Positions 4,252 through 61,913 of a stretch of 64,000 nucleotides of DNA are shown here, piece after piece. The number at the start of each line of letters is the position of its first letter. The stretch's first letter is position 1. This DNA comes from a virus (taxonomy: Duplodnaviria > Caudoviricetes). Made by a program: the position numbers and the translations under genes. The stretch is from positions 352,001 through 416,000 of the IMG/VR virus record IMGVR_UViG_3300035208_004923; one strand, 5' to 3'. The notes below the pieces were generated by a model. That model ran no database searches, was not told the DNA's origin, and worked only from the letters and a program-made list of their open reading frames with translations.

Positions 4252-5877
4252 TTATGAAAATAATTTTACATAAGATGATAATGAATCGTATGCATCTGTT
4301 AATTTGAATTCTTCAACTATTAATTTTCCATCGTATATTTTGCCGTTTATTGCATCAACTGAAATAAAATCGCCTTCTTTATAAACTTTATTGTTAATTG
4401 TTAATGTTAATGTTTTCATATCAATTGTCATATTGCTACAGCCAACAACACAAGGTTTATTCATTTGTCTTGCAACAATTGCTGCGTGGCATGTCATACC
4501 ACCTCTTGTTGTTATAACGCCATCTGATAATTTCATACCAATTAAATCAGCAGGTGATGTATCAATTCTAACTAAAATTGAGTTTTCTCCGGATTTATTA
4601 AATTTTTCAACACTTTCATTATTAAAAGCAATACGGCCAACCGCAATACCGCTTGATGCACTTAATCCTGTTGAAATATGAATATCGTTTACTTTTAATC
4701 TTTTTGCATTAAGAAAATGCAATTGAGTTTTATCTATTCTATTCAATGCAGTATTAGGTGATATTAAACCTTCGCACGCCATATCATATGCAATATTAAC
4801 AGCGCCAAGTATATTACATTTTGCATTTCTTGTTTGTAAAATGTAAACAATTTCATTTTCTATCGTAAATTCGATATCTTGAACATCGCCATAATGTTGC
4901 TCTAATTTATTAGCATAAGATATGAGTTTACTATATGCAATTGGCATTGATTCTTCTAATGAAATGTAGTTTTTATTTCGTTCAGTTTCATCTATAAAAT
5001 TATCAGTTGCCCATTTTGCCGATTCATATTTCGATATTTTTTTAGGTGTAACAACACCTGATACGATATCTTCACCTTGTGCTTTTGTCAAATATTCTCC
5101 AGTTATCAGATTTTCACCTGTAATAGGATTTCGTGTAAATAATACACCCGTTCCTGAATTGTCATTTATATTTCCAAAGACCATTGATTGTACAACAACA
5201 GCAGTTCCTAATGAATCATCTATGCCGTATGATTTTCTGTAATAAACAGCAACATCATTATTGAAAGAATTGAATACTGCAGATATTGAACGGAATAACT
5301 GCGTGTATACATCAATAGGAAATTCTTCACCGATTTCTTTGAAATACAACTTTTTATATTCTGCAATTGCTGTTTGCAATTCTTCTACTGTTGCGTTATT
5401 ATTGCAAAAATCAAATAAATCTTCATCGATGCCAGACACATGAATTGCAAAAGTTTCGATGAATTTCAAATATAATCGTAATGGAAATATTGCATCTCCA
5501 GTTTCTTTAGCAATTACATTAACAATATCATCATTGATTCCAACATTTAAAATTGTTGTCATCATGCCAGGCATTGATTCAACACCGCTTGAACGTATTG
5601 ATAAAAGTAATGGATTAGAACTTCCGCCGAACAACTTGTTTGTTTCTGATTCTAATGTTTTTATATCATTAGTAATATGCTGTTTTAATTCAGATGTTAT
5701 GTTTTTATCGTTTTTCCATTTTGCGTATGCATCAGTTGAAACAATAAAACCGTATGGCAATGAAACATTCAAACGATTCATTTCTAAAAGATTGAATCCT
5801 TTTCTACCTACTGCTGTTAATTCGGCAGTATCTGAAAAATTTGTTCTAAAAAAATACGATAGTTTATTCATAATCAA
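4252..5877 (-). CDS. ppdK: Pyruvate phosphate dikinase-like protein lacking the C-terminal PEP/pyruvate-binding barrel
   Basis: GRKGFNL, PLLLSIRSSGVESMPGMMTTILNVG, QSMVFGN, GTGVLFTRNP, AQGEDIVSG, QDIEFTIE, LQTR, phospho-His loop GGMTCHAAIVARQMNKPCVVGC; ends at 541 aa. Confidence 0.9.
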   Translation of the reverse strand: MIMNKLSYFFRTNFSDTAELTAVGRKGFNLLEMNRLNVSLPYGFIVSTDAYAKWKNDKNITSELKQHITNDIKTLESETNKLFGGSSNPLLLSIRSSGVESMPGMMTTILNVGINDDIVNVIAKETGDAIFPLRLYLKFIETFAIHVSGIDEDLFDFCNNNATVEELQTAIAEYKKLYFKEIGEEFPIDVYTQLFRSISAVFNSFNNDVAVYYRKSYGIDDSLGTAVVVQSMVFGNINDNSGTGVLFTRNPITGENLITGEYLTKAQGEDIVSGVVTPKKISKYESAKWATDNFIDETERNKNYISLEESMPIAYSKLISYANKLEQHYGDVQDIEFTIENEIVYILQTRNAKCNILGAVNIAYDMACEGLISPNTALNRIDKTQLHFLNAKRLKVNDIHISTGLSASSGIAVGRIAFNNESVEKFNKSGENSILVRIDTSPADLIGMKLSDGVITTRGGMTCHAAIVARQMNKPCVVGCSNMTIDMKTLTLTINNKVYKEGDFISVDAINGKIYDGKLIVEEFKLTDAYDSLSSYVKLFS

Positions 5878-25107: not shown

Positions 25108-25749
25108 TTATTTGTTATATTTCTTACCGCTGAATACATCGGATTTGATGACATAGTTTACTAATTTTTGAGATCCCATGTCAAATAAGTTATTTGTTGA
25201 AACAATAAAACACCAATCAGAATACATTTTTATAACAAATACATCCTTTGCAACTTCGTTTACTTTGCCGCCATCATGCGACAATTTCTTTAACGCTAAT
25301 TTAGGACTATCTGCAGATACTGTTGTTGAACCGTAGTTATTGCCTCTATTTGCTAATGCGCTTTCAATTGCTCCTTTGATTGTTTCTTTACCGACGCCGC
25401 CCATGCTAACACTTATGACATAATATTCTGTTCCGTATTCGATAAGACCCCACTTATTTAATTGTTTTGCAATTGCTGGATATTTTTCTGGCGTAAATAA
25501 ATCAAAGTGTGATTCAAAGTCAGAAATTTCTACATCACTATAATGTTCTTGATTAGGATTTGCATACGTTAAGTATACATACTGTTTTTTTGGAGAATAT
25601 TGTGCAGCTTTCTTTATATACGGTTCTCCCTTTAAAAACCTTCCTATGTCACCATTCAAATTACTTGTGCATATATAAATTTCTAATGGCTTTTTAGCAG
25701 CTTCATTAACAAATTCAAAGCTATCAAATGTAGGTATTCTGTTTTTCAT
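25108..25749 (-). CDS. RIP-leader protein (putative internal virion protein)
   Basis: MKNRIPTFDSFEFVNEA. Confidence 0.7.
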   Translation of the reverse strand: MKNRIPTFDSFEFVNEAAKKPLEIYICTSNLNGDIGRFLKGEPYIKKAAQYSPKKQYVYLTYANPNQEHYSDVEISDFESHFDLFTPEKYPAIAKQLNKWGLIEYGTEYYVISVSMGGVGKETIKGAIESALANRGNNYGSTTVSADSPKLALKKLSHDGGKVNEVAKDVFVIKMYSDWCFIVSTNNLFDMGSQKLVNYVIKSDVFSGKKYNK

Positions 25750-25751
25750 AA

Positions 25752-26324
25752 TTACTTTTTCTTTTTATTGCATTCGTATAAATTTGATGTAATTTGTGGT
25801 GGCAATTGCTCAAATTTCATATCAGCATATTTTTCACAATCATCAGGATCTTCGCACGCGCCAGATACTGCTTCACATCTATCATCAAAACTCATTTTAT
25901 CCCATGTTTGTTTTGTAATAAGAACTTGTTTGCCTTCATTTGTTTTGATTTCATCATACAGTTCTTTCAACTTCTTACCGCCAAATTTGCTTATAAGATT
26001 TTTAAATTCGTCTTTGAATCTTTTTTCAAATTCCGCAAAAGTATCGCATTCATCAGCTAATGCATAAACGTCAGAAAGATCTGATTCGTTTACAAAACTT
26101 TCATTTGTTTCGCTTTGAACTCTGTTATACAACTCGTGCAATTTCACACCTTTAAAATTACGAACAAATTGTTTAAAATCTACGTTAAATCTTTTGTCGA
26201 ATTCTTCAAATGTATCACATTCTTTTGCTAACGATTCTATATCAGATAGTATGTCAGATATTTCTTTTTCATTAACTTTTGATTCGTTGATGTATTCATC
26301 GAGTGTAGGTATTCTTCTTTCCAT
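25752..26324 (-). CDS. RIP-leader protein with duplicated internal module
   Basis: MERRIPTLDEYINESKVNE; LAxECDTFxEFxKRF...GxKLxELY twice; several xNE sites. Confidence 0.7.
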   Translation of the reverse strand: MERRIPTLDEYINESKVNEKEISDILSDIESLAKECDTFEEFDKRFNVDFKQFVRNFKGVKLHELYNRVQSETNESFVNESDLSDVYALADECDTFAEFEKRFKDEFKNLISKFGGKKLKELYDEIKTNEGKQVLITKQTWDKMSFDDRCEAVSGACEDPDDCEKYADMKFEQLPPQITSNLYECNKKKK

Positions 26325-31313: not shown

Positions 31314-32186
31314 TTAATTACGTTTTCTTTTTTTTGCTGATTCGCGCATTTTTTGTTTCGTTTCGTCTGTTCGTTTTTGACCTCTCCTAGATTCTGCTGC
31401 TTTGTCTATAGATTCTTGCTTTTGTCTTACACCTCTTGTTATACCTACCAATTCACCTGATAAATATCTGGGGTCATCTCGTAAAACTTTGTATGTTTTA
31501 CCTGATGCGTCTTTAACCATTACCATTCCCTTTGATATGTTTACCAATTCCCCCGATAAATATCTAGGATCGTTTTTATCAACTTGTAATGTACAGCCAT
31601 TGGCATCTTTAACAGTTACTCTTCCTTTAGCAATACCCACCAATTCGCCAGATAAATATCTTACGTCGTCAGGTAATACAGAAAAATAATTGCCATTTGC
31701 ATCTTTAACACTTATACGTCCTTTAAACATGTGAATTAATTCACCAGATACATATCTTGGATCATTTTTATCAACCATATGATAATTATTATCTGAATCT
31801 AATGTTGGCACAATGCCTTTTGTTACGCCAACAAAATTCCCAGATAAATACAGTTCGCTGTCTTTACGTAATAACTTCACATTTCCGTTAGCATCCTTTA
31901 GTGATGCTGCACCTGTTGTGTGAAAGCCAACAGATGGAATATGATAGTTTTCATTTAAAGGATCTTCAATCCATTTTGAAATTTCTTCAGTTTCAAACTT
32001 AATAGCATCTTCTCTACAAATAAAGTCATCTTTAATAATTTCCTTTTTTAGTTTTGTTTTGTTAGGTTTCCAAGTTTTCATTGAACCTAAATAAGAATCT
32101 AGAGTAGGATGAACTTCTGAACTTCTGGAACCTATATAGAATTGTTTAGTTTCTATATGTTCAATTCGATATACATAATGATACAT
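31314..32186 (-). CDS. GIY-YIG-like endonuclease with five 32-aa repeats and NUMOD3-like tail
   Basis: YVYRIEHIETKQFYIGSR...YLGSMKTWK; DPRYLSGEL repeats; GQKRTDETKQKMRES. Confidence 0.8.
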   Translation of the reverse strand: MYHYVYRIEHIETKQFYIGSRSSEVHPTLDSYLGSMKTWKPNKTKLKKEIIKDDFICREDAIKFETEEISKWIEDPLNENYHIPSVGFHTTGAASLKDANGNVKLLRKDSELYLSGNFVGVTKGIVPTLDSDNNYHMVDKNDPRYVSGELIHMFKGRISVKDANGNYFSVLPDDVRYLSGELVGIAKGRVTVKDANGCTLQVDKNDPRYLSGELVNISKGMVMVKDASGKTYKVLRDDPRYLSGELVGITRGVRQKQESIDKAAESRRGQKRTDETKQKMRESAKKRKRN

Positions 32187-49113: not shown

Positions 49114-50274
49114 TTATTTTTTTAATTCTTCAGTATCAATACTTTTATGGAAGTTATCGAAATTGAAGTATTTTTTATATACATCTAGAACTTTTTCTAA
49201 TGTAATGTCAGATATAATTGTTTCGACACGAGTTGATGGTTCATCAATGAACTTTTCAAAATTATCATATCTGTTTATTTCTTGTTTTTTGAATTTAATA
49301 ACATAACTTTTTTTCACGATGTCGAATCGTTCTTTTGTCATGTAAGTATCCGGATTCTTTAACACCATTTCAAGTGTTGTTTGAAATTCATCAATGTTCT
49401 TTGTTGACGATTCAGCATTAATAATAACTAATCCTTCAGTATATGTTAACTCTTGAAAAGAACAACCTATTGAATACACAAGTCCACGTTTTTCGCGAAT
49501 TTCTTTATATAAAGGTGAGTTCAATCCTCTTCCTAACATTGAACAAATAAAGTTAACGTAAGCAATATCTTCAGTAATCAAATCAGAAAAATTCATTATT
49601 GATGACTTACCTTTATATTCGTTACCTTCTTCTACTGGTGCATCATACGTACCTTTTACATATTTTGTTGATGGCACATTTGTTGACAAATCAACCTTTT
49701 GTGTAAATCTGTTATGTTTTGATATGTTTATAATTTGGTGAGGTTTTGCATATTGTTTTGCAACAAATTCTAACATCATTTCATATGTTAAATCTTCAAG
49801 ATCTTTTCTTAAACCGATTGCGCTGTAATTGTTATATGTCTTTCTCAATACATTTAAGAAATGAGCAGAACTTTGTCGATTAAATGAATCGCCATATTCT
49901 TCAAGAACAATTTTCTTTTCATTTTCAAATTCTTCTTTTGTTATTTTGAAATTTAAAAGGCATTTAAGAAATTCCGACTTATACTTATTTATGTATTCGT
50001 CAAGTCCTGTCATGTAAAAATATATGTACGTACCTGTTGTGTATGCATTCCAATCAATGCCATCAGCATCAAAAGTATCTTGTAAATGGTCAATTGCTTT
50101 ACAAACTAAATGTTCTGTTAAATGGCTGATACCATAAATTCCTGGTTTTTCGTTAAGAACTGAACCTCTATAAACAACACCGAAGTGTGACATATCAGTT
50201 AAACTTTCAGCGTTTGTTATTCCTGTGATTTCTTCAGGATTGAAATTTTCAAATAGTGGTATTCTTTGTTTCAT
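49114..50274 (-). CDS. M16 (insulinase) family zinc peptidase with RIP-like leader
   Basis: GISHLTEHL (HxxEH), NAYTT, EKKIVLEE, SPLYKEIREKRGLVYS; N-term MKQRIPLFENF. Confidence 0.9.
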   Translation of the reverse strand: MKQRIPLFENFNPEEITGITNAESLTDMSHFGVVYRGSVLNEKPGIYGISHLTEHLVCKAIDHLQDTFDADGIDWNAYTTGTYIYFYMTGLDEYINKYKSEFLKCLLNFKITKEEFENEKKIVLEEYGDSFNRQSSAHFLNVLRKTYNNYSAIGLRKDLEDLTYEMMLEFVAKQYAKPHQIINISKHNRFTQKVDLSTNVPSTKYVKGTYDAPVEEGNEYKGKSSIMNFSDLITEDIAYVNFICSMLGRGLNSPLYKEIREKRGLVYSIGCSFQELTYTEGLVIINAESSTKNIDEFQTTLEMVLKNPDTYMTKERFDIVKKSYVIKFKKQEINRYDNFEKFIDEPSTRVETIISDITLEKVLDVYKKYFNFDNFHKSIDTEELKK

Positions 50275-54220: not shown

Positions 54221-55814
54221 TTATTTTTTCCAAAGTTCAATCTGATTATCGTATAACCAATTCTCGCCCGATTTGAATTTTATCCAGTGGCATATACCTA
54301 ATACCGAGTTTGCTGTTTTGATAATTTTACCTTTGCTACCAAGACGTGTTGAAGAATAATATTCCAACTTATTTATGAAACGAATTTCATCATCTTTTTC
54401 AAAGGGCTTAGATTTTTTATATCCTTTACCGTTATTTAGCGAATACGGTATATCTTTGCAACTGTGTGATTTGCTGCAAATTAATTTTCCAACATAATCG
54501 TTGCCATCTTTCACAACAGTAACTTCATATCCGTATTCACTTTTTAATCTGTCACCTGTAAAAATTTGATTTCCATTGTCATCAATGTATCCTGTAAAAA
54601 TGATTTTCATTATCCTATTTTATTTAAAATCTCGTGTATTTCGCTTTTCATATTGAAGTATTCGATAAAATCGGGTTCTGTTATTTTGAAGTTATCTATG
54701 CAATTTTGCAATTCTTTAACATCTTTAAGTTGTTTTTCCATACCAGCAATGTCATTGCTATATGCATTTTTGTTTAAAATTTCAATTGCATTTCTTCGAG
54801 TTTCCATTGTGTATTCATTGCCTACCTTTACAATTCCATAATACATTCTATAATTTATACGTTTGTCAATTCCGTATATGTCAAAAGCAGGATACTTATC
54901 AATAAACAAGTTGTCAATGTCAATTATGGTTGCATTTACTTTTACTGCGTCGTGCACAAATTTTGATGCAATAAGATTTTCAAATTTCTTATTGCCAATG
55001 TTTGGTCTGATTGCAATAAATTTTGGAATATATGTACGGAGTTCGTCAATTTTATTCTTTAAGAATTCTAAGTTTTTAAAGAATTTTGTTAATTTTGCGG
55101 TAACATCTACATTAATAGGTAACGTAAGATTGTATTTTGACGATTTATTTTCGATCCCAATGTACATTTCTTTCTTATTCATATCGAAATAATTTCTATA
55201 CAGCTGCAATCGAATCGTACCTTTTATTGCTAATTCAAATTTAATGCCATATATGATTAAGTACAAACTGTTATAATCAATTTCGTATTCAATTTTTGTT
55301 CCTGAAAAAGATTCTAACATGTTTTTAACTTGAACATCTAAAGGTCCATGGAGAAAATTGTCATGATACTTTTCACCATTTGAGTTGATTATATTTGACA
55401 TATATGTTATTTGTATTGATAAGGATATATGATTACAGAAAAGAAAGATACGCCATTCATATCTTTATATGTATAAATAAATGTTACATTATTATCTCTA
55501 AGTATGCCCATTGCACTATTAATACGAATATTTTGTATTAATGAAACTTCCATTTTTGATTTTATTTCTGATATTTGCAAATCTGTAAAATTACTTTTAG
55601 GAGCAAGCAATGTATAATTGTAATCAATAGTTTTTGGCGGGTATACCTTAGTGAATTCCAAACGGGTTATATCATCAATCATTCGTGGACACGTTGTATT
55701 CATTGTTACTGCTGATTGATTCAACAGTACTAATATTTGTTCGTCACTGATTGTTTGTGAATAAGATAATGCGCAAGTTAATGCAAAGACAATTGCTAAA
55801 AAGATTCTTTTCAT
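54221..55814 (-). CDS. Three ORFs (54221..54610 YopX-like start, 54610..55401, 55407..55814 with signal peptide)
   Basis: FTGYIDDNGNQIFTGD; MKRIFLAIVFALTCALSYSQ. Confidence 0.6.
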
Positions 55815-55856
55815 GATTTTTAATTTTAATAGATTAGTTTATAATTTTATTTTATA

Positions 55857-55882
55857 TTATATACAGAATGTTCAAATAGTTT
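55857..55882 (-). promoter_or_regulatory. Class II promoter-like motif
   Basis: AAACT-ATTTGAACATT-CTGTATATAA. Confidence 0.7.
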
Positions 55883-55885
55883 CAT

Positions 55886-55916
55886 AAAAAAGGATTTACC
55901 TTTCGATAAATCCTTT
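55886..55916 (-). terminator. Intrinsic terminator closing the large RIP-leader cluster
   Basis: aaaggattta-cctttcga-taaatccttt inverted repeat with T-tail on minus strand. Confidence 0.8.
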
Positions 55917-55933
55917 AATTTGTTTGTATTTTA

Positions 55934-56335
55934 TTAACGCTTCCAGTTTTTTCCACTTAATAACGTTTGCTTTTCAGATGGTGATAATTCTGATTCATCA
56001 ACAATTTTTTCAAATTCAGATTGAGGAATAATTCTAAAGTGTTTTAATACACCTGCATATGTTTTATCTTTTTCTCTGCACCATTCCCACATGTTCCATT
56101 GATTTGCACCGGATGCATTAGAACGGAATTTCACCGGTCGTAAGTATGCAGTTGTTCCATAATAATGTTTAACAACTTGTAAATTATAAACTGTTAATTT
56201 GTCATTATCATTTTTTTCGTATGCAAGAATTGTGCCAACTGGCAATTCTTTGGGTCCTACAAAATCTGGACCATCAGATTCATTAATTATGCTTTCATTA
56301 ATATATTCGTCAAGTGTTTGTATTCTTCTTTCCAT
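55934..56335 (-). CDS. RIP-leader protein
   Basis: MERRIQTLDEYINESIINES. Confidence 0.7.
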   Translation of the reverse strand: MERRIQTLDEYINESIINESDGPDFVGPKELPVGTILAYEKNDNDKLTVYNLQVVKHYYGTTAYLRPVKFRSNASGANQWNMWEWCREKDKTYAGVLKHFRIIPQSEFEKIVDESELSPSEKQTLLSGKNWKR

Positions 56336-56589
56336 TACTTATTATATTTTTTTTCTAAATAAGAAATAGCATTCTTTAGTTCTGCATAATTAATAAACTT
56401 GATAATTGATTTTTCTTTATTAGCAGTGTACATTGAATCTTTTATCCCAGAATTTGCAATAAAATCTTTTAATGTTCCTACATTAATAAATTTTATTTCA
56501 TTTTTTTCTTTGTTTGCTTTGTACATTTCAAGCGATTCATTAATGCTTTCATTGATGTGTTCATCAAGTGTTGGTATTCTTCTTTCCAT
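56335..56589 (-). CDS. RIP-leader protein with duplicated internal motif
   Basis: MERRIPTLDEHINESINES; MYxANKEKxxIKFINxxxLK twice. Confidence 0.7.
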   Translation of the reverse strand: MERRIPTLDEHINESINESLEMYKANKEKNEIKFINVGTLKDFIANSGIKDSMYTANKEKSIIKFINYAELKNAISYLEKKYNK

Positions 56590-56599
56590 TTTGTTTCTT

Positions 56600-57103
56600 T
56601 TATTTTAAATATCTTCCTATAAAAATTCCAATGATTACTGTTGCAATTGAAATAACTTCAATCCAGTAAATGTATGTATCTTTTTTGAATGTTAATAATG
56701 TTGCAATACCTGCTAACACAACACCTATGCCAATTAACCACCATAAGCCAAATTCAATTCCTAATCCTAAAACTGCTGTTGTTATTCCAGAAATTGCAAA
56801 AATCATATGCGGAACATAAAATTTCTTTTCTTTAATTGTAGGATATGCAGCCATTATCAACAAGCAGGTGCCAGCAATCATATGCATTAATGTTTGAGCA
56901 GATAGCATTATGCTTGCAGCAGAAACCCAAATAAATACTTGAAATAACCAATGAGGCTTAACATAATAATAACTCATTGAAATTGATTTAACATTGCCAA
57001 AATCGCTTCTTACAGCTAAAAGATATATGATAAATGTAACAACGCCAACAATAAGTGATGTTAAACCTAATGTTGCATTAAAAGTGTTGAAAATTTCTAA
57101 CAT
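56600..57103 (-). CDS. Multi-pass membrane protein inside the RIP cluster
   Basis: About six hydrophobic segments; SISMSYY. Confidence 0.7.
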   Translation of the reverse strand: MLEIFNTFNATLGLTSLIVGVVTFIIYLLAVRSDFGNVKSISMSYYYVKPHWLFQVFIWVSAASIMLSAQTLMHMIAGTCLLIMAAYPTIKEKKFYVPHMIFAISGITTAVLGLGIEFGLWWLIGIGVVLAGIATLLTFKKDTYIYWIEVISIATVIIGIFIGRYLK

Positions 57104-57130
57104 GCATAATTACTTATTTTAAATTGTTTA

Positions 57131-57868
57131 CTATCCAAACAGTTGTCGTAATGTGTTATCAAATAAATCACCGGTTACTTCCGTTTTATCTTTTAAATAA
57201 AACTTATCTTTATATATTTTTTCTTTAGAAATTAAAACATCTGGTATTTTTTTACCGTCTATTGAATTGTATCCTGAAAGAATATATTTATCGTTACCTA
57301 TATTTTTTATGTTAACAATATGCATATCATCATGAATCAAATCATATTTTCCTGCACCGTAACTTAATCTGCTATATTTAACAGCGCCTTCCATGTATTC
57401 TTTTTTGTCAGCAGGAAAACTACTATATTTGATTATTTTTGCCCAACCATTATGTAAAGCAACAAACATAAGTTGTAACATAAAATCGTTATAATCATAA
57501 TTAAACTCGTATGACGATATATCCCAAGCAGTCATTTTCACACCTTGCAGTATTTCAGTATATCCGCCTTGGTATCCTTTTACGACAGCAAGTGGCTTGC
57601 CATTTTTATCAATTTCAATTTTACCGTCTTCGCTGAATATAAAAAGAACATCATCTTTTTCTACTTCACGGCTGCTATTTTTTAAAAAATTATTTGTTGC
57701 CGCAACGTGTGAGCCAAACCAGGATGTTGCACTAAGTTTAAAATCAATATCTTTATGATTAAATGGCTTAGTTACAATAATAGCATCACCCTTTTTAAAT
57801 TTTAATGCTTCATTCGATAAGTTTGCTTCATTCAAAAATTCATCGAACTTTGGTATTCTGTTTTTCAT
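57131..57868 (-). CDS. RIP-leader protein
   Basis: MKNRIPKFDEFLNEANLSNEA. Confidence 0.7.
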   Translation of the reverse strand: MKNRIPKFDEFLNEANLSNEALKFKKGDAIIVTKPFNHKDIDFKLSATSWFGSHVAATNNFLKNSSREVEKDDVLFIFSEDGKIEIDKNGKPLAVVKGYQGGYTEILQGVKMTAWDISSYEFNYDYNDFMLQLMFVALHNGWAKIIKYSSFPADKKEYMEGAVKYSRLSYGAGKYDLIHDDMHIVNIKNIGNDKYILSGYNSIDGKKIPDVLISKEKIYKDKFYLKDKTEVTGDLFDNTLRQLFG

Positions 57869-57870
57869 AC

Positions 57871-58200
57871 TTATTTTTTTATTTTTATGTTATTACGTTC
57901 AACCCATGATTCAGGTCTTCCTACTTCAATTAAGAAAGTTGCGCCATTCGACAATTTGAAATAAGATTTGTCATAATCATTGCTTCTAAGATAAGAAAAC
58001 TCATTCCCTTTTTTAATTGTAAAGTAACAGCCTTTCCATGATTCTCGTTCACGTTCGTCTGCTGGAATTGATTGCATATATGACTTTTCAACGAATACTG
58101 AAATATCTTCAGTTGCAATTAACGTATCATTAGCTTTTAAATAATGTTTTGATTCAGCTTCGTTTATATGTTCATCCAAACTTGGTATTCTGTTTTTCAT
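57871..58200 (-). CDS. RIP-leader protein (start corrected to 58200)
   Basis: MKNRIPSLDEHINEA. Confidence 0.7.
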   Translation of the reverse strand: MKNRIPSLDEHINEAESKHYLKANDTLIATEDISVFVEKSYMQSIPADERERESWKGCYFTIKKGNEFSYLRSNDYDKSYFKLSNGATFLIEVGRPESWVERNNIKIKK

Positions 58201-58207
58201 ATTATAG

Positions 58208-58489
58208 TTATGTTTCATCTGTATAAATTGATACAACCGGGTATTCCAGTATGTAATTTAATTTATTTATTGGCTTTGAATATTCAACGCAAATCATATA
58301 TCCATTAATGCTAATACCAAGAATACCTTCGCCATCAACTTTGCAAGAATTTATCGCAAATTCTTTTAATAATTCATTCTCAAGTTCATGAACTGTTTTT
58401 GCTCTTGAGCTTTTTATAAAAGAACTGATATCATTGCGTACAGCTTCAAATATAAAGGTATCAAATAATGGAATTCGTATATTCATCAT
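58208..58489 (-). CDS. RIP-leader protein
   Basis: MMNIRIPLFDTFIFEA. Confidence 0.65.
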   Translation of the reverse strand: MMNIRIPLFDTFIFEAVRNDISSFIKSSRAKTVHELENELLKEFAINSCKVDGEGILGISINGYMICVEYSKPINKLNYILEYPVVSIYTDET

Positions 58490-58791
58490 TTCTTATTTTT
58501 TACAGCCGATTTAACATATACTAATAAATCATCATAACTTACAAGTTTGTAATCGTTTTCTTTTTTCATAAAATCAGAAATTTCTGTTGCATCGCCGAAT
58601 CCTCTAGTATTTAAAACTGCAGCATAATTTGCAATCTTATTTCTTTGTGCATGCGTTAATCTTGCGTATGCAGGAATCAATTCTTTGCCATCAGGTGTCG
58701 TGTAATTACTTTCAAATTTGAATAAGTACATACATTCATCATTTGATGATTCAAAAATAAATTCATCAAGTGTTGGAATTCTTTTATTCAT
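58486..58791 (-). CDS. RIP-leader protein
   Basis: MNKRIPTLDEFIFES. Confidence 0.7.
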   Translation of the reverse strand: MNKRIPTLDEFIFESSNDECMYLFKFESNYTTPDGKELIPAYARLTHAQRNKIANYAAVLNTRGFGDATEISDFMKKENDYKLVSYDDLLVYVKSAVKNKK

Positions 58792-58797
58792 TCCTAA

Positions 58798-59148
58798 TTA
58801 TTTTTTTTGAATTAAGCCAACGAACTCAATGATTTGCGCATCGGTTGGCCAAGGCGTACTGATTCCTTGTCTTAAAATTGATTTAACGCCATCTACTGTA
58901 AGATCATCAGTTTTAAGTGATGCTGATGGGTTTTTACCGTTGTTGTCTCGTCCAACAATCATGTTAGGAACAATTTGGTTTCCTGGTTGTTCATATGTTT
59001 TGTGCATAAATGCAATACACGGCCATGTTTTGCCGAAATATCTTAATAACATCGGTTCGCCGTTATTTGCACTCACAATCCATTCTTTGCTTGCTTCATT
59101 AATGTTTTCATTAATGTGTTCATCTAATGTAGGTATTCTTTGTTTCAT
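58798..59148 (-). CDS. RIP-leader protein (start corrected to 59148)
   Basis: MKQRIPTLDEHINENINEASK. Confidence 0.7.
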   Translation of the reverse strand: MKQRIPTLDEHINENINEASKEWIVSANNGEPMLLRYFGKTWPCIAFMHKTYEQPGNQIVPNMIVGRDNNGKNPSASLKTDDLTVDGVKSILRQGISTPWPTDAQIIEFVGLIQKK

Positions 59149-59167
59149 TTTCGATATACTTATTTTA

Positions 59168-59608
59168 TTATTGTCTAGGATGTTTCCAAACATATATAGT
59201 TTGATTGTCTATATCTGATAGCCAGTCTTTTATGTCGTCCCAATTATCAAAAATTACATATTCTCTTGAATTTACATCCCATGTATATGTTAAAGGCCGC
59301 CAAGTAGGTAACTTGTCTAACGTTTTTGATGCGCCACATGTATAAAATAATTCCCATCCTTTACCACCGAATCCGCCAAAATCAACATCAGGATTTTTAC
59401 TGTGTTCTTCTCTGCTAGAAGGCTTACATGTACAAAAACTTGCGGATGTCATTCCAATCTTGCCACCTAGCGAATTCCATTTATTTTTAACTATTAATGC
59501 AGGAACCGATTTTAGATTATCCCACCATTTTTCTACGTCGAAGTCTTTGCTTGCTTCATTAATACTTTCATTAATGTGTTCGTCAAGACTTGGTATTCTT
59601 TTGTTCAT
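59168..59608 (-). CDS. RIP-leader protein
   Basis: MNKRIPSLDEHINESINEASK. Confidence 0.7.
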   Translation of the reverse strand: MNKRIPSLDEHINESINEASKDFDVEKWWDNLKSVPALIVKNKWNSLGGKIGMTSASFCTCKPSSREEHSKNPDVDFGGFGGKGWELFYTCGASKTLDKLPTWRPLTYTWDVNSREYVIFDNWDDIKDWLSDIDNQTIYVWKHPRQ

Positions 59609-59623
59609 ATGATTTAGTTTGTT

Positions 59624-59632
59624 TTATATATT
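59624..59632 (-). promoter_or_regulatory. Class III (late-like) promoter motif AATATATAA heading the RIP cluster
   Basis: Same motif precedes 26324, 50274 and the endonuclease transcription units. Confidence 0.5.
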
Positions 59633-59655
59633 CTAAAAAGTTATTGAGAATTATC

Positions 59656-60925
59656 TTATAATCCTCTTTTAATTTCTAAAATATCACATGAATTGAATGC
59701 ATACGTCCTTTCAATTTTTTCATCGGGCTGTCCTTCGAATTGAAAACTTGAATTACTTCTGTACTGTTTAACTTTACGTATAACAAGCCATCCATCTTGT
59801 TGATATGATTGCAATTCTTTTTTATGTTCATCAGACCATTCTGACAAATCAACTTTCAATTTGTCACCTACATATATTCCTACTTTAAACCAAGCCATAC
59901 TAATCGTTATTACGTGTGTGTTTACTAAAAAATTTATCGACTGTCATTTCTTCACTATCAGAATACCTTCCTTTTGGAATACTCATAAAGATATTTAATG
60001 CAACTACAATGTCATATTCATATTCAACATTAATATTTGTTTTTTGCAAATATAACTTGAATTCTTCTTGGCATTCACGGCAAACATATCCGATACCCTC
60101 TATATACGTATCGCACATTACATTACCGCATTCATTTCTATTACATGATAATACACTCATCTTTATTCTGAATTTTAACTTAATAACTTAACTTGCATTC
60201 TTGTTTCTATAACCTTTGCTTTTACATAATATTCTAAACGTTTTGCAGATTCAATGTATTCATCTTTCAATTTTTGAAATTCAGCATCATTAATTTCTTT
60301 CCAACTTGAATATCCATTAAAACAATAATGAAAACCTTCTTCTTTCATTCTGTATTTAATATTTTCCCATTCTTCTAATGATTCTAACGCTTTCTCTAAT
60401 TTATCTTCCATTTGCTTATGTATTTCGTTTACTTAATATTTTTCTATATTCATTTTGAAAATTTTTCAATAATTCACAACTGTTTGTATGACACAATTCA
60501 CAATTATAGTGTATGTCATCCCAATGGTCATGCTTATTTATTTTGCAATTAATGCATGGGTTATTATCATCGCGCCATTTTATTACTGGTGACAATTCTT
60601 CTAAATCTTTTGCTAATTGCGTATCTCGTTCATCCAGATTCGCAATTATATTGTTACGTGAATTATCATCAATAACATATTTTGTAGGATAACTCCAATA
60701 ATCGCTTTTAAATCCCACATTATTTTCTTTCATGAATTTTAAAATCAAATAAACATGAAACATGAAATTTTCGCAGCAAATCTCATTATATGAATCACCG
60801 GTTTTGTTTTCTGCATAAACAGAATATCCTAATTCGCCAGAATCTCCTCTGTACGATTCAATTTTTATATTTCTGTCATATCCATATGAACATAACAAAA
60901 CTTTAAATACATCAGTATTCGTCAT
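59656..60925 (-). CDS. Four hypothetical ORFs (59656..59898, 59900..60160, 60175..60411, 60416..60925)
   Basis: ORF track. Confidence 0.6.
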
Positions 60926-60929
60926 AATC

Positions 60930-61913
60930 TTATCTTATAATTTTACAATCTTTTTCAACATATACTTTATGCGGTTTATCAACGATTTTACGGACCAATG
61001 TGTTTTCTTCAGATCCTTCCGTTACATATTTTGCAATAATTTCGTCAGTTGGTTTCGATTCCCATATGCATGCAGCATTGTAATGGTTTGCTCTTATTCC
61101 TGAATACCATTTATCTGATTGTTTTGTAATGTAAGTATTCATTTCATCAATTGAAATAACTTTATCTGTCTTACCTGTATCGAAACATTTCTTTGTTTTG
61201 CAACACATGTATTCCCATCTGCCATCATTGTATTTTCGTTTATTCCTAAACATGTGAAACTTTTCAGGATGAATTGTTGTTACTTCAGTAACTTCCCATC
61301 TATTACGTCTTGCAGCATCTTCACTTATAACTTCTGTTCCTCTAACGTATTCCCATCCTGTTAATAACAAATAGTAATTACCGATGTAAACAAATTTTGT
61401 TGTTCCTTCTCTATCTGAATACACATGCCCAGGTATCAAATCTTTCATTGCAACAATGCCTGATGTTATTGTTGACGTTTGTTCTTTATATTTTTCATAA
61501 TCTGAAGATTCAACAGATATTAAAGATAATGAAAACTTGTCCCAAACTAAAACCAATTCACCCATGATTTCACCTTTTATGATGTCATGAAAACCCATAA
61601 GTGCAAATAAATTATCAGCAGTTATTTCAAATTCAAAACCTTTTGGATGAATAATGTAAAACATAGTTCTTCCTGAACCAAACCAATCTGCAGATCTTTG
61701 TGTTAATCCTGCAAGTTTGAATCCTTTTGATGGTTCATTTGTTATTACTGGAATTTCTTTATCGCCCCATGATGACCAAGATTTTTCAGCTCGAATCTTT
61801 CCATTCTCATCGACATAAGTTATAAATCCCAATGGAGTTTTACTTCCATCTTTGCGAATTCTTACTTTTAATTCTTTAGGTAATATCATATCATTATAGT
61901 TTATATTTATCAA
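60930..61913 (-). CDS. Conserved phage hypothetical protein, paralog of 560..1819
   Basis: LGFITY...EKSWSSWGD...RSADWFGSGRTMFYIIHPKGFEFEITADNLFAL. Confidence 0.75.
   Translation of the reverse strand: MININYNDMILPKELKVRIRKDGSKTPLGFITYVDENGKIRAEKSWSSWGDKEIPVITNEPSKGFKLAGLTQRSADWFGSGRTMFYIIHPKGFEFEITADNLFALMGFHDIIKGEIMGELVLVWDKFSLSLISVESSDYEKYKEQTSTITSGIVAMKDLIPGHVYSDREGTTKFVYIGNYYLLLTGWEYVRGTEVISEDAARRNRWEVTEVTTIHPEKFHMFRNKRKYNDGRWEYMCCKTKKCFDTGKTDKVISIDEMNTYITKQSDKWYSGIRANHYNAACIWESKPTDEIIAKYVTEGSEENTLVRKIVDKPHKVYVEKDCKIIR

Follow-up and report, generated by a model that had tools for sequence, protein, structure and literature searches.

A 14-residue N-terminal tag on dozens of unrelated proteins of a megaphage with T4-type head genes, a candidate capsid-targeting propeptide

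The tagged gene array and its genome

We analyzed a window of 64,000 nucleotides, positions 352,001 to 416,000 of the IMG/VR virus record IMGVR_UViG_3300035208_004923 (hereafter contig C1, one contig of a 1.6-Mb assembly). A sequence-only reading of this window had described a cassette array of unrelated proteins with a common N-terminal leader and had proposed that the leader directs them into the phage head. On the minus strand between positions 55934 and 59608, eight of nine tightly packed genes were indeed found, by open reading frame (ORF) listing and by a six-frame motif scan, to start with M-x-x-R-I-[PQ]-x-[LF]-D-[ET]-x-[IL]-[NF]-E and then to diverge. Strict matches to this tag occur ten times in the whole window, each of them 4–23 codons past a stop, so that none is internal, and chance is excluded as the origin of the shared motif. 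The window holds 11 tagged proteins altogether, eight in the array and three outside it.

The array forms a single unit, headed by a late-promoter-like motif and ended by a strong terminator, as that reading had it, and all of its features lie on the minus strand. The motif, GAATATATAAAAC (59621–59633, read directly), ends 12 nt before the first ATG at 59608. It is followed by carrier 1 (59168–59608; 146 residues) and carrier 2 (58798–59148; 116 residues counted from the leader Met), both with a canonical leader and a second I-N-E; carrier 3 (58486–58791; 101 residues), whose leader ends I-F-E before Ser; carrier 4 (58208–58486; 92 residues), with the variant leader R-I-P-L-F-D-T-F-I-F-E; carrier 5 (57871–58200; 109 residues counted from the leader Met), again canonical; and carrier 6 (57131–57868; 245 residues), whose leader ends L-N-E before Ala. 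An untagged multi-pass membrane protein of 167 residues without leader, taken from the ORF listing, stands mid-array (56600–57103), and after it come carrier 7 (56335–56589; 84 residues), canonical with a second I-N-E, and carrier 8 (55934–56335; 133 residues), in which Gln replaces the Pro of the leader and a second I-N-E follows. All eight carriers were recovered by the ORF listing, the motif scan and a hidden Markov model (HMM) of the leader. The array is closed by an intrinsic terminator (55883–55916) made of a 12-bp hairpin stem and a U-run (dG -13.9 kcal/mol, z = -4.9), which none of 200 shuffles equalled in stability; a consensus terminator scan missed it because the stem is AT-rich, and it was recovered by folding. 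Past this terminator lie another promoter-like motif (about 55846–55863) and a 135-residue gene on the same strand (55407–55814) with a signal-peptide-like N-terminus, and the composite of terminator and promoter below the array recalls the PeSL elements of T4-like phages.

Three further carriers had been named elsewhere in the window. Two of them, both on the minus strand and found by motif scan and leader HMM, bear out that claim: a 190-residue protein (25752–26324) has a canonical leader and its own promoter-like motif upstream, and a 213-residue protein (25108–25749) has a leader with a one-residue insertion that ends V-N-E before Ala. The third, also on the minus strand (49114–50274; 386 residues), carries a degenerate leader that lacks the I-N-E end (leader HMM E = 0.11) on an M16 (insulinase/pitrilysin-type) peptidase (Pfam PF00675 and PF05193). 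This gene is preceded by a promoter-like motif, and its product may either be packaged itself or serve as an alternative enzyme for processing.

None of the nine array genes, tagged or untagged, matched a family in Pfam or PHROGs, and a nucleotide search of positions 55000–61000 of the window against deposited phages gave no match. For the 245-residue carrier 6, a word-indexed homologue search returned only the protein itself; two distant metagenome homologues, themselves tagged, are about 27–29% identical over a full-length alignment, and an AlphaFold model built from this three-sequence alignment was poor (pLDDT 42).

C1 is 425,361 bp long (31% GC) and has a terminal repeat of 4.6 kb at about 98% identity, which gives a unit length of about 420.8 kb. 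Among its products are a T4-type portal, an S77 prohead protease, a Gp23 capsid protein and a tail sheath, and this T4-type head and tail gene set, together with the terminal repeat, marks it as a complete megaphage genome (421 kb). C1 is binned with 77 further contigs (1.18 Mb, about 30% GC), all untagged, which we take to be a small AT-rich bacterium; as the assembly thus combines phage and bacterium, its completeness figure does not describe the phage.

The tag across the genome and among relatives

Scanning six frames of the whole assembly with the leader HMM retrieved 62 carriers, all of them on C1 and none on the other 77 contigs. The library, proposed to comprise at least 11 cargo proteins, numbers 62 tagged genes. 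Arg is residue 4 in every carrier, the genes fall into 19 clusters of up to eight, and no carrier shows the motif at an internal position, which the sequence-only reading had named as a point that would count against a tag. Glu14 is invariant in the 44 canonical tags and position 12 is I, V or L; Asn is favoured just before the Glu, which 44 of the 54 tags scored follow with Ser, Ala, Asn or Gly, and a second I/L-N-E often stands a few residues further on. Conservation among the carriers ends abruptly at residue 14. The C1 gene at 267345–267902 has a degenerate tag (R-I-I-T-L-N-E-F-V-E-Q), whereas its 61%-identical orthologue at 1374–1916 of a related locus, L076, is tagged canonically; decay of tags is therefore possible, which makes 62 a minimum count.

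What follows the tag differs from carrier to carrier. All-versus-all BLASTP of 61 tag-stripped cargos detected no similarity apart from one identical tandem copy, carrier lengths range from 70 to 387 residues, and a Pfam domain was recognized in two of the 61, the M16 peptidase and a UPF0227 protein. The tag itself is acidic and amphipathic and has no hydrophobic core, hence it is not a secretion signal; a membrane-like segment was predicted in one of the 62 cargos, compared with 79 of the 582 other genes, and a Sec or lipoprotein signal peptide was ruled out on these grounds. In a de novo search for shared N-termini in a 482-kb relative, true lipoprotein signals formed a separate cluster.

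We then looked beyond the phage itself. IMG/VR holds 41 relatives of its capsid protein. When the loci of these relatives were searched with the C1 leader HMM, only the closest one matched, a 218-kb contig with 66% capsid identity; directly upstream of the capsid gene of this contig, no fewer than 11 genes bear a variant of the tag. A strict DNA pattern of the leader found only a fragment of the same phage in IMG/VR. An exhaustive HMMER search of 1.84 billion proteins with the tag profile (cut-off E <= 0.001) gave 117 matches, 30 from the phage itself and 87 foreign, the latter from several JGI, ENA and Logan assemblies. Fermentation and digester metagenomes are among the kinds of sample in which this lineage occurs. 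In 80 of the 87 foreign proteins the tag begins at residue 1, in line with the expectation of the sequence-only reading that such a model would hit N-termini; the exceptions include two fused cassettes with an internal Met and one unrelated repeat protein. The two fused proteins (P0004 and P0109) hold two or three complete units of tag and cargo in one ORF, each internal tag with its own Met, and may reflect lost stop codons, another genetic code or real polyproteins.

The tag is nearly constant across the foreign proteins while the cargo turns over: the 131 tagged proteins compared fall into 110 cargo families, 49 of which were seen only elsewhere and ten of which are shared. Turnover is also visible at a single site. 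Between the capsid gene and a conserved gene pair, C1 carries a 287-residue ORF and eight carriers, whereas locus L076, with a capsid protein 79% identical, has 1.3 kb and no carrier, and this synteny indicates that the array has been gained or lost between C1 and a close relative.

A second, different tag was found in the complete 482-kb relative (G002, IMG/VR), from which the R-I-P tag is absent, the genome having been analyzed in full. There, M-K-H-[IVL]-K-L-[FY]-E-x-F-[LI]-N-E begins at least 53 genes, or about 80 by a looser rule; it is N-terminal in all of them, all 46 of 46 cargos compared are unrelated, and many of the genes stand in long arrays at 147–169 kb and 457–476 kb. The HMMs of the two tags do not match each other. 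The front of the tag is therefore lineage-specific, and the F-[IL]-N-E end is common to both phages, as is the L-N-E site of their capsid proteins considered below; T4 departs from L/I-N-E in its tag as well as in its capsid protein.

Head genes and the candidate capsid-targeting role

The head module of C1 follows the gene order of T4. On the minus strand it comprises a tagged gene of 132 residues, three small ORFs, the S77 prohead protease (280540–282591 of C1; 683 residues, of which the N-terminal 230 or so are the S77 domain; PF03420, E = 1e-11), the Gp23 capsid gene (PF07068, E = 7e-37), the 287-residue ORF and the eight carriers; the genome also encodes the T4-type portal (PF07230, E = 1e-57). 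A gp21-like protease had been anticipated from the leader alone, and the enzyme present, aligned to T4 gp21 and to the solved gp21 chain 5JBL, retains the catalytic His and Ser, for which 5JBL has Ala. The N-terminus of the enzyme lines up with the L-I-E-9 self-cleavage site of T4, and its C-terminal extension contains six [ILV]-N-E motifs against 0.6 expected (P = 4e-5), an enrichment that would be expected of a scaffold that is cut to pieces.

The capsid protein offers a candidate for the cleavage form. In T4, cleavage of gp23 falls after Glu65, 12 residues short of a conserved block; ahead of the block aligned with T4 gp23, the C1 capsid protein has as its last such motif A-L-N-E then Ser, 21 residues upstream. 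H-[AS]-L-N-E-[SAN] is invariant in 37 related capsid proteins, where it closes a conserved propeptide of 43 residues and is followed by a hypervariable linker. We therefore take A-L-N-E then Ser to be the putative capsid maturation site. The capsid site (L-N-E then Ser) and the end of the tag (I/L-N-E then a small residue) are of the same form, including Asn before and Ser after the Glu. The form [IL]-x-E, at which processing of the leader had been proposed, is thus found in both, and it corresponds to the L/I-X-E after which gp21 cleaves (PMC9026906).

The promoter-like motif also connects the arrays with virion genes. Its core, ATATATAA[AT], lies 20–27 nt upstream of 75 same-strand gene starts on C1, among them those of the prohead protease, the tail sheath (phrog_34521, E = 2e-100) and 12 carrier array heads, a distribution that appears compatible with a T4-like late promoter. 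The same promoter-like motif was seen before each member of a repeated family of 250–300-residue proteins that start M-Y-H-Y-V-Y-K-V, contain a Y-I-G motif and look like GIY-YIG homing endonucleases; one is encoded at 31314–32186 of the window (minus strand), and members occur at no fewer than seven other sites on C1, for example near 4597, 7683, 11210, 12630, 57160 and 292770.

Strictly N-terminal and selected at the level of the peptide, the tag stands on unrelated proteins and co-occurs with a T4-type head gene set. We think it likely that these 14 residues are a capsid-targeting propeptide of the T4 type, cut by the phage's own gp21-type protease and expanded about twenty-fold over T4; this reading is favoured because the end of the tag has the form of the putative capsid maturation site, because such sites are enriched in the protease-scaffold and because carriers lie in and beside the head module. 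Under this model, the tagged proteins would be made from late-type promoters alongside the virion genes, and the tag would dock on the scaffolding core of the growing prohead. Past Pro6 it could fold into a short amphipathic helix, one face of which would bear residues 8, 11 and 12. Upon closure of the shell, the gp21-type serine protease would cut after Glu14, where [I/V/L]-N-E precedes a small residue, and in many cases at the second I/L-N-E as well, and the freed cargo would remain in the head and exit with the DNA at infection. The phage would thus probably send a very large set of finished proteins along with its DNA. We infer docking, cutting, packaging and ejection, as well as the role of the cargo, which, if T4 Ip1-3 are a guide, may be counter-defence or host takeover.

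Several points weigh against capsid targeting. The packaging step is read from sequence for this phage and for all relatives, and the packaging of 62 different proteins would have no precedent. Nor is the cargo basic: its median isoelectric point (pI) of 6.5 equals that of the other genes and is unlike that of the T4 internal proteins. The expectation that scaffold and head proteins would carry the leader held for the tagged 132-residue gene just upstream of the protease and failed for the capsid protein and the protease-scaffold itself, neither of which the leader HMM matched. A T4 gp55 query retrieved no gp55 late sigma factor from the genome, a null that is uninformative, so that late timing of the arrays is something we only infer. 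The claim that the leader is a longer and distinct tag of the T4 kind is upheld by its residue classes and its L/I-x-E end; homology to the capsid-targeting sequence (CTS) of T4 was not detected, as the leader HMM scored -0.4 bits against IPII and -0.9 bits against IPIII with only E-F-I-x-E aligned, so that the likeness could be convergent, or coincidental at five residues, the tag being too short to decide between shared descent and convergence. Lastly, the conservation of codons 4 and 5 beyond codon usage, described below, hints at some constraint at the nucleotide level.

The tag might instead be an address or docking signal for a destination or partner other than the capsid, such as an assembly chaperone, a system of timed degradation or activation, or another compartment, with its I-N-E end incidental. 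Besides the pI of the cargo, the invariant Arg4 and the N-terminal half R-I-P, which has no T4 counterpart, would suit such a role, as would the M16 peptidase that the phage encodes, since the M16 family includes enzymes that remove presequences. We nevertheless regard this as rather unlikely, because the end of the tag matches the invariant capsid maturation site and the sites enriched in the protease-scaffold, because carriers occur inside and beside the head module and share their promoter-like motif with virion genes, because the tag has no hydrophobic core that would make it a secretion signal, and because the 482-kb relative alters the front of the tag and keeps the F-[IL]-N-E end.

It is very improbable, in our view, that the 5' end is conserved as nucleotides, as a translation-initiation or regulator-binding element or as a cassette recombination site, and that the peptide is a by-product. 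Codon choice at most tag positions is that of the genome (Pro is written with four codons and Leu with five), which places the constraint on the peptide; at codons 4 and 5, as an exception, Arg4 is encoded by AGA (56 of 62 leaders) and Ile5 by ATA (52 of 59) far more often than either genome-wide usage or that near the starts of other genes would give, whereas synonymous sites at the other ten tag positions tested vary freely according to genome usage. The sequence-only reading had also seen in the leader DNA a possible handle for recombination, and one event agrees with it. At 264585–265663 of C1 a carrier gene is repeated in a perfect 539-bp tandem duplication, with identity from codon 4 of one leader to codon 14 of the next; both junctions therefore point to a crossover inside a 33-nt stretch common to three leaders, an assembly artefact being also possible, and recombination of the T4 type requires <50 bp of homology (PMC2839356). 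Most leader pairs have little exact identity in common: pairwise DNA identity averages 69%, exact runs have a median length of 8 nt, and runs of at least 20 nt occur in only 11 of 1,891 pairs. Moreover, the peptide is kept in metagenome relatives whose conserved genes are only 70–80% identical to C1 in DNA, and nothing in a DNA element would call for codon 14 to encode Glu without exception, with a small residue next to it. A purely DNA-level element was therefore rejected as a reading of the tag, together with a secretion signal and a paralogous family.

That the carriers are one old paralogous family with bodies diverged beyond recognition and only the N-terminus kept is hardly credible, for, typical of duplication as tandem arrays are and visible as one recent duplication is, the range of lengths, the lack of pairwise similarity among the 61 cargos, the different Pfam folds of two carriers, the 110 families among 131 tagged proteins and the stop of conservation at residue 14 all speak against it.

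Beyond the array as first described, the 87 foreign tagged proteins, the 110 cargo families, the gain or loss of an array, the duplication with junctions inside the leader and the second tag of the 482-kb relative are new. Should the capsid-targeting reading be true, this phage would bring a pre-made arsenal far larger than the three internal proteins of T4. Sequence alone would then suffice to list what uncultured giant phages inject, giving a catalogue of at least 110 families of candidate counter-defence or host-takeover proteins and a partial account of what the orphan gene content of megaphages is for, and a second natural packaging tag would be available for putting foreign proteins into capsids. 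A wider proposition, for which we see the balance as even, is that T4-core megaphages use lineage-specific N-terminal address codes, each ending in the cleavage form of its own prohead protease, and so load into the capsid 50–80 different proteins, or roughly one gene in ten, from a pool of more than 100 cargo families that turns over fast. The virion-delivered proteome would then surpass by far, in diversity, that of any phage studied, and it could be read directly from the sequences of uncultured phages.

Comparison with known packaging systems

The principle of capsid targeting is well known for T-even phages (PMC3012670, PMC12373910); our literature search found no paper on such a system in megaphages or at such a scale. 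In T4, the CTS of IPI, IPII, IPIII and Alt is removed by gp21 (Mullaney and Black 1996, as reviewed in PMC9026906, PMC3012670, PMC9958956, PMC12373910). The first ten residues are enough for loading, residues 4 and 7 serving targeting and residues 8 and 10 processing (PMC9026906), and the three internal proteins are specific inhibitors of host restriction enzymes (PMC12373910). In the T4 record, IPII and IPIII start M-K-T-Y-Q-E-F-I-A-E then Ala. With the Glu as the point from which positions are counted backwards, and in terms of residue classes only, T4 positions 4, 7, 8 and 10 correspond to [L/F]8, [F/Y/H]11, [I/V/L]12 and E14 of the C1 tag. In both systems, proteins that are otherwise unrelated thus begin with a short peptide that ends in hydrophobic-x-Glu before a small residue and has hydrophobic residues at the T4 targeting positions; both phages have gp20-, gp21- and gp23-type head genes in T4 order, and in C1 as in the internal protein loci of T-even phages the cargo genes stand in plastic arrays that vary between relatives. 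They differ in that the C1 tag has 14 residues rather than ten, with an invariant Arg4-Ile5-Pro6 front that has no T4 counterpart, in that the C1 cargo is not basic and Asn is favoured before the Glu, and in scale, C1 having 62 carriers against three internal proteins as well as Alt for T4 and more than 30 internal protein variants across all T-even phages (PMC2839356). The T4 system has been studied as proteins, whereas that of C1 is known from genes.

The giant phages phiKZ, 201phi2-1 and SPN3US also have an S77-family protease and many head-internal proteins, with cleavage after Glu and extra sites within the propeptides (PMC5694885, PMC7411985, PMC10052503). Their propeptides are mostly more than 100 residues long, have no one peptide in common and are cut at S/A-x-E, and 8–19 proteins are processed. 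A head propeptide of the phiKZ/SPN3US type was ruled out for C1, where the tag has 14 residues, is common to many proteins and ends in I/L-N-E.

In the layout of their genes, the C1 arrays resemble the PeSL cassettes and hyperplastic internal protein loci of T4-like phages, in which small orphan genes stand in arrays bounded by composites of terminator and promoter, are gained and lost between close relatives and have short conserved sequences as crossover sites (PMC2839356, PMC4122927). PeSL elements differ from them in being intergenic with early sigma-70-type promoters, whereas in C1 the crossover repeat is the coding leader and the motif resembling a promoter belongs to the late kind of T4.

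A further parallel is the 482-kb relative, in which dozens of unrelated proteins likewise begin with one N-terminal peptide ending F-[IL]-N-E and the capsid protein has the same L-N-E site; the front of its tag is M-K-H-I-K-L-F-E where that of C1 is M-x-x-R-I-P-x-L-D-E.

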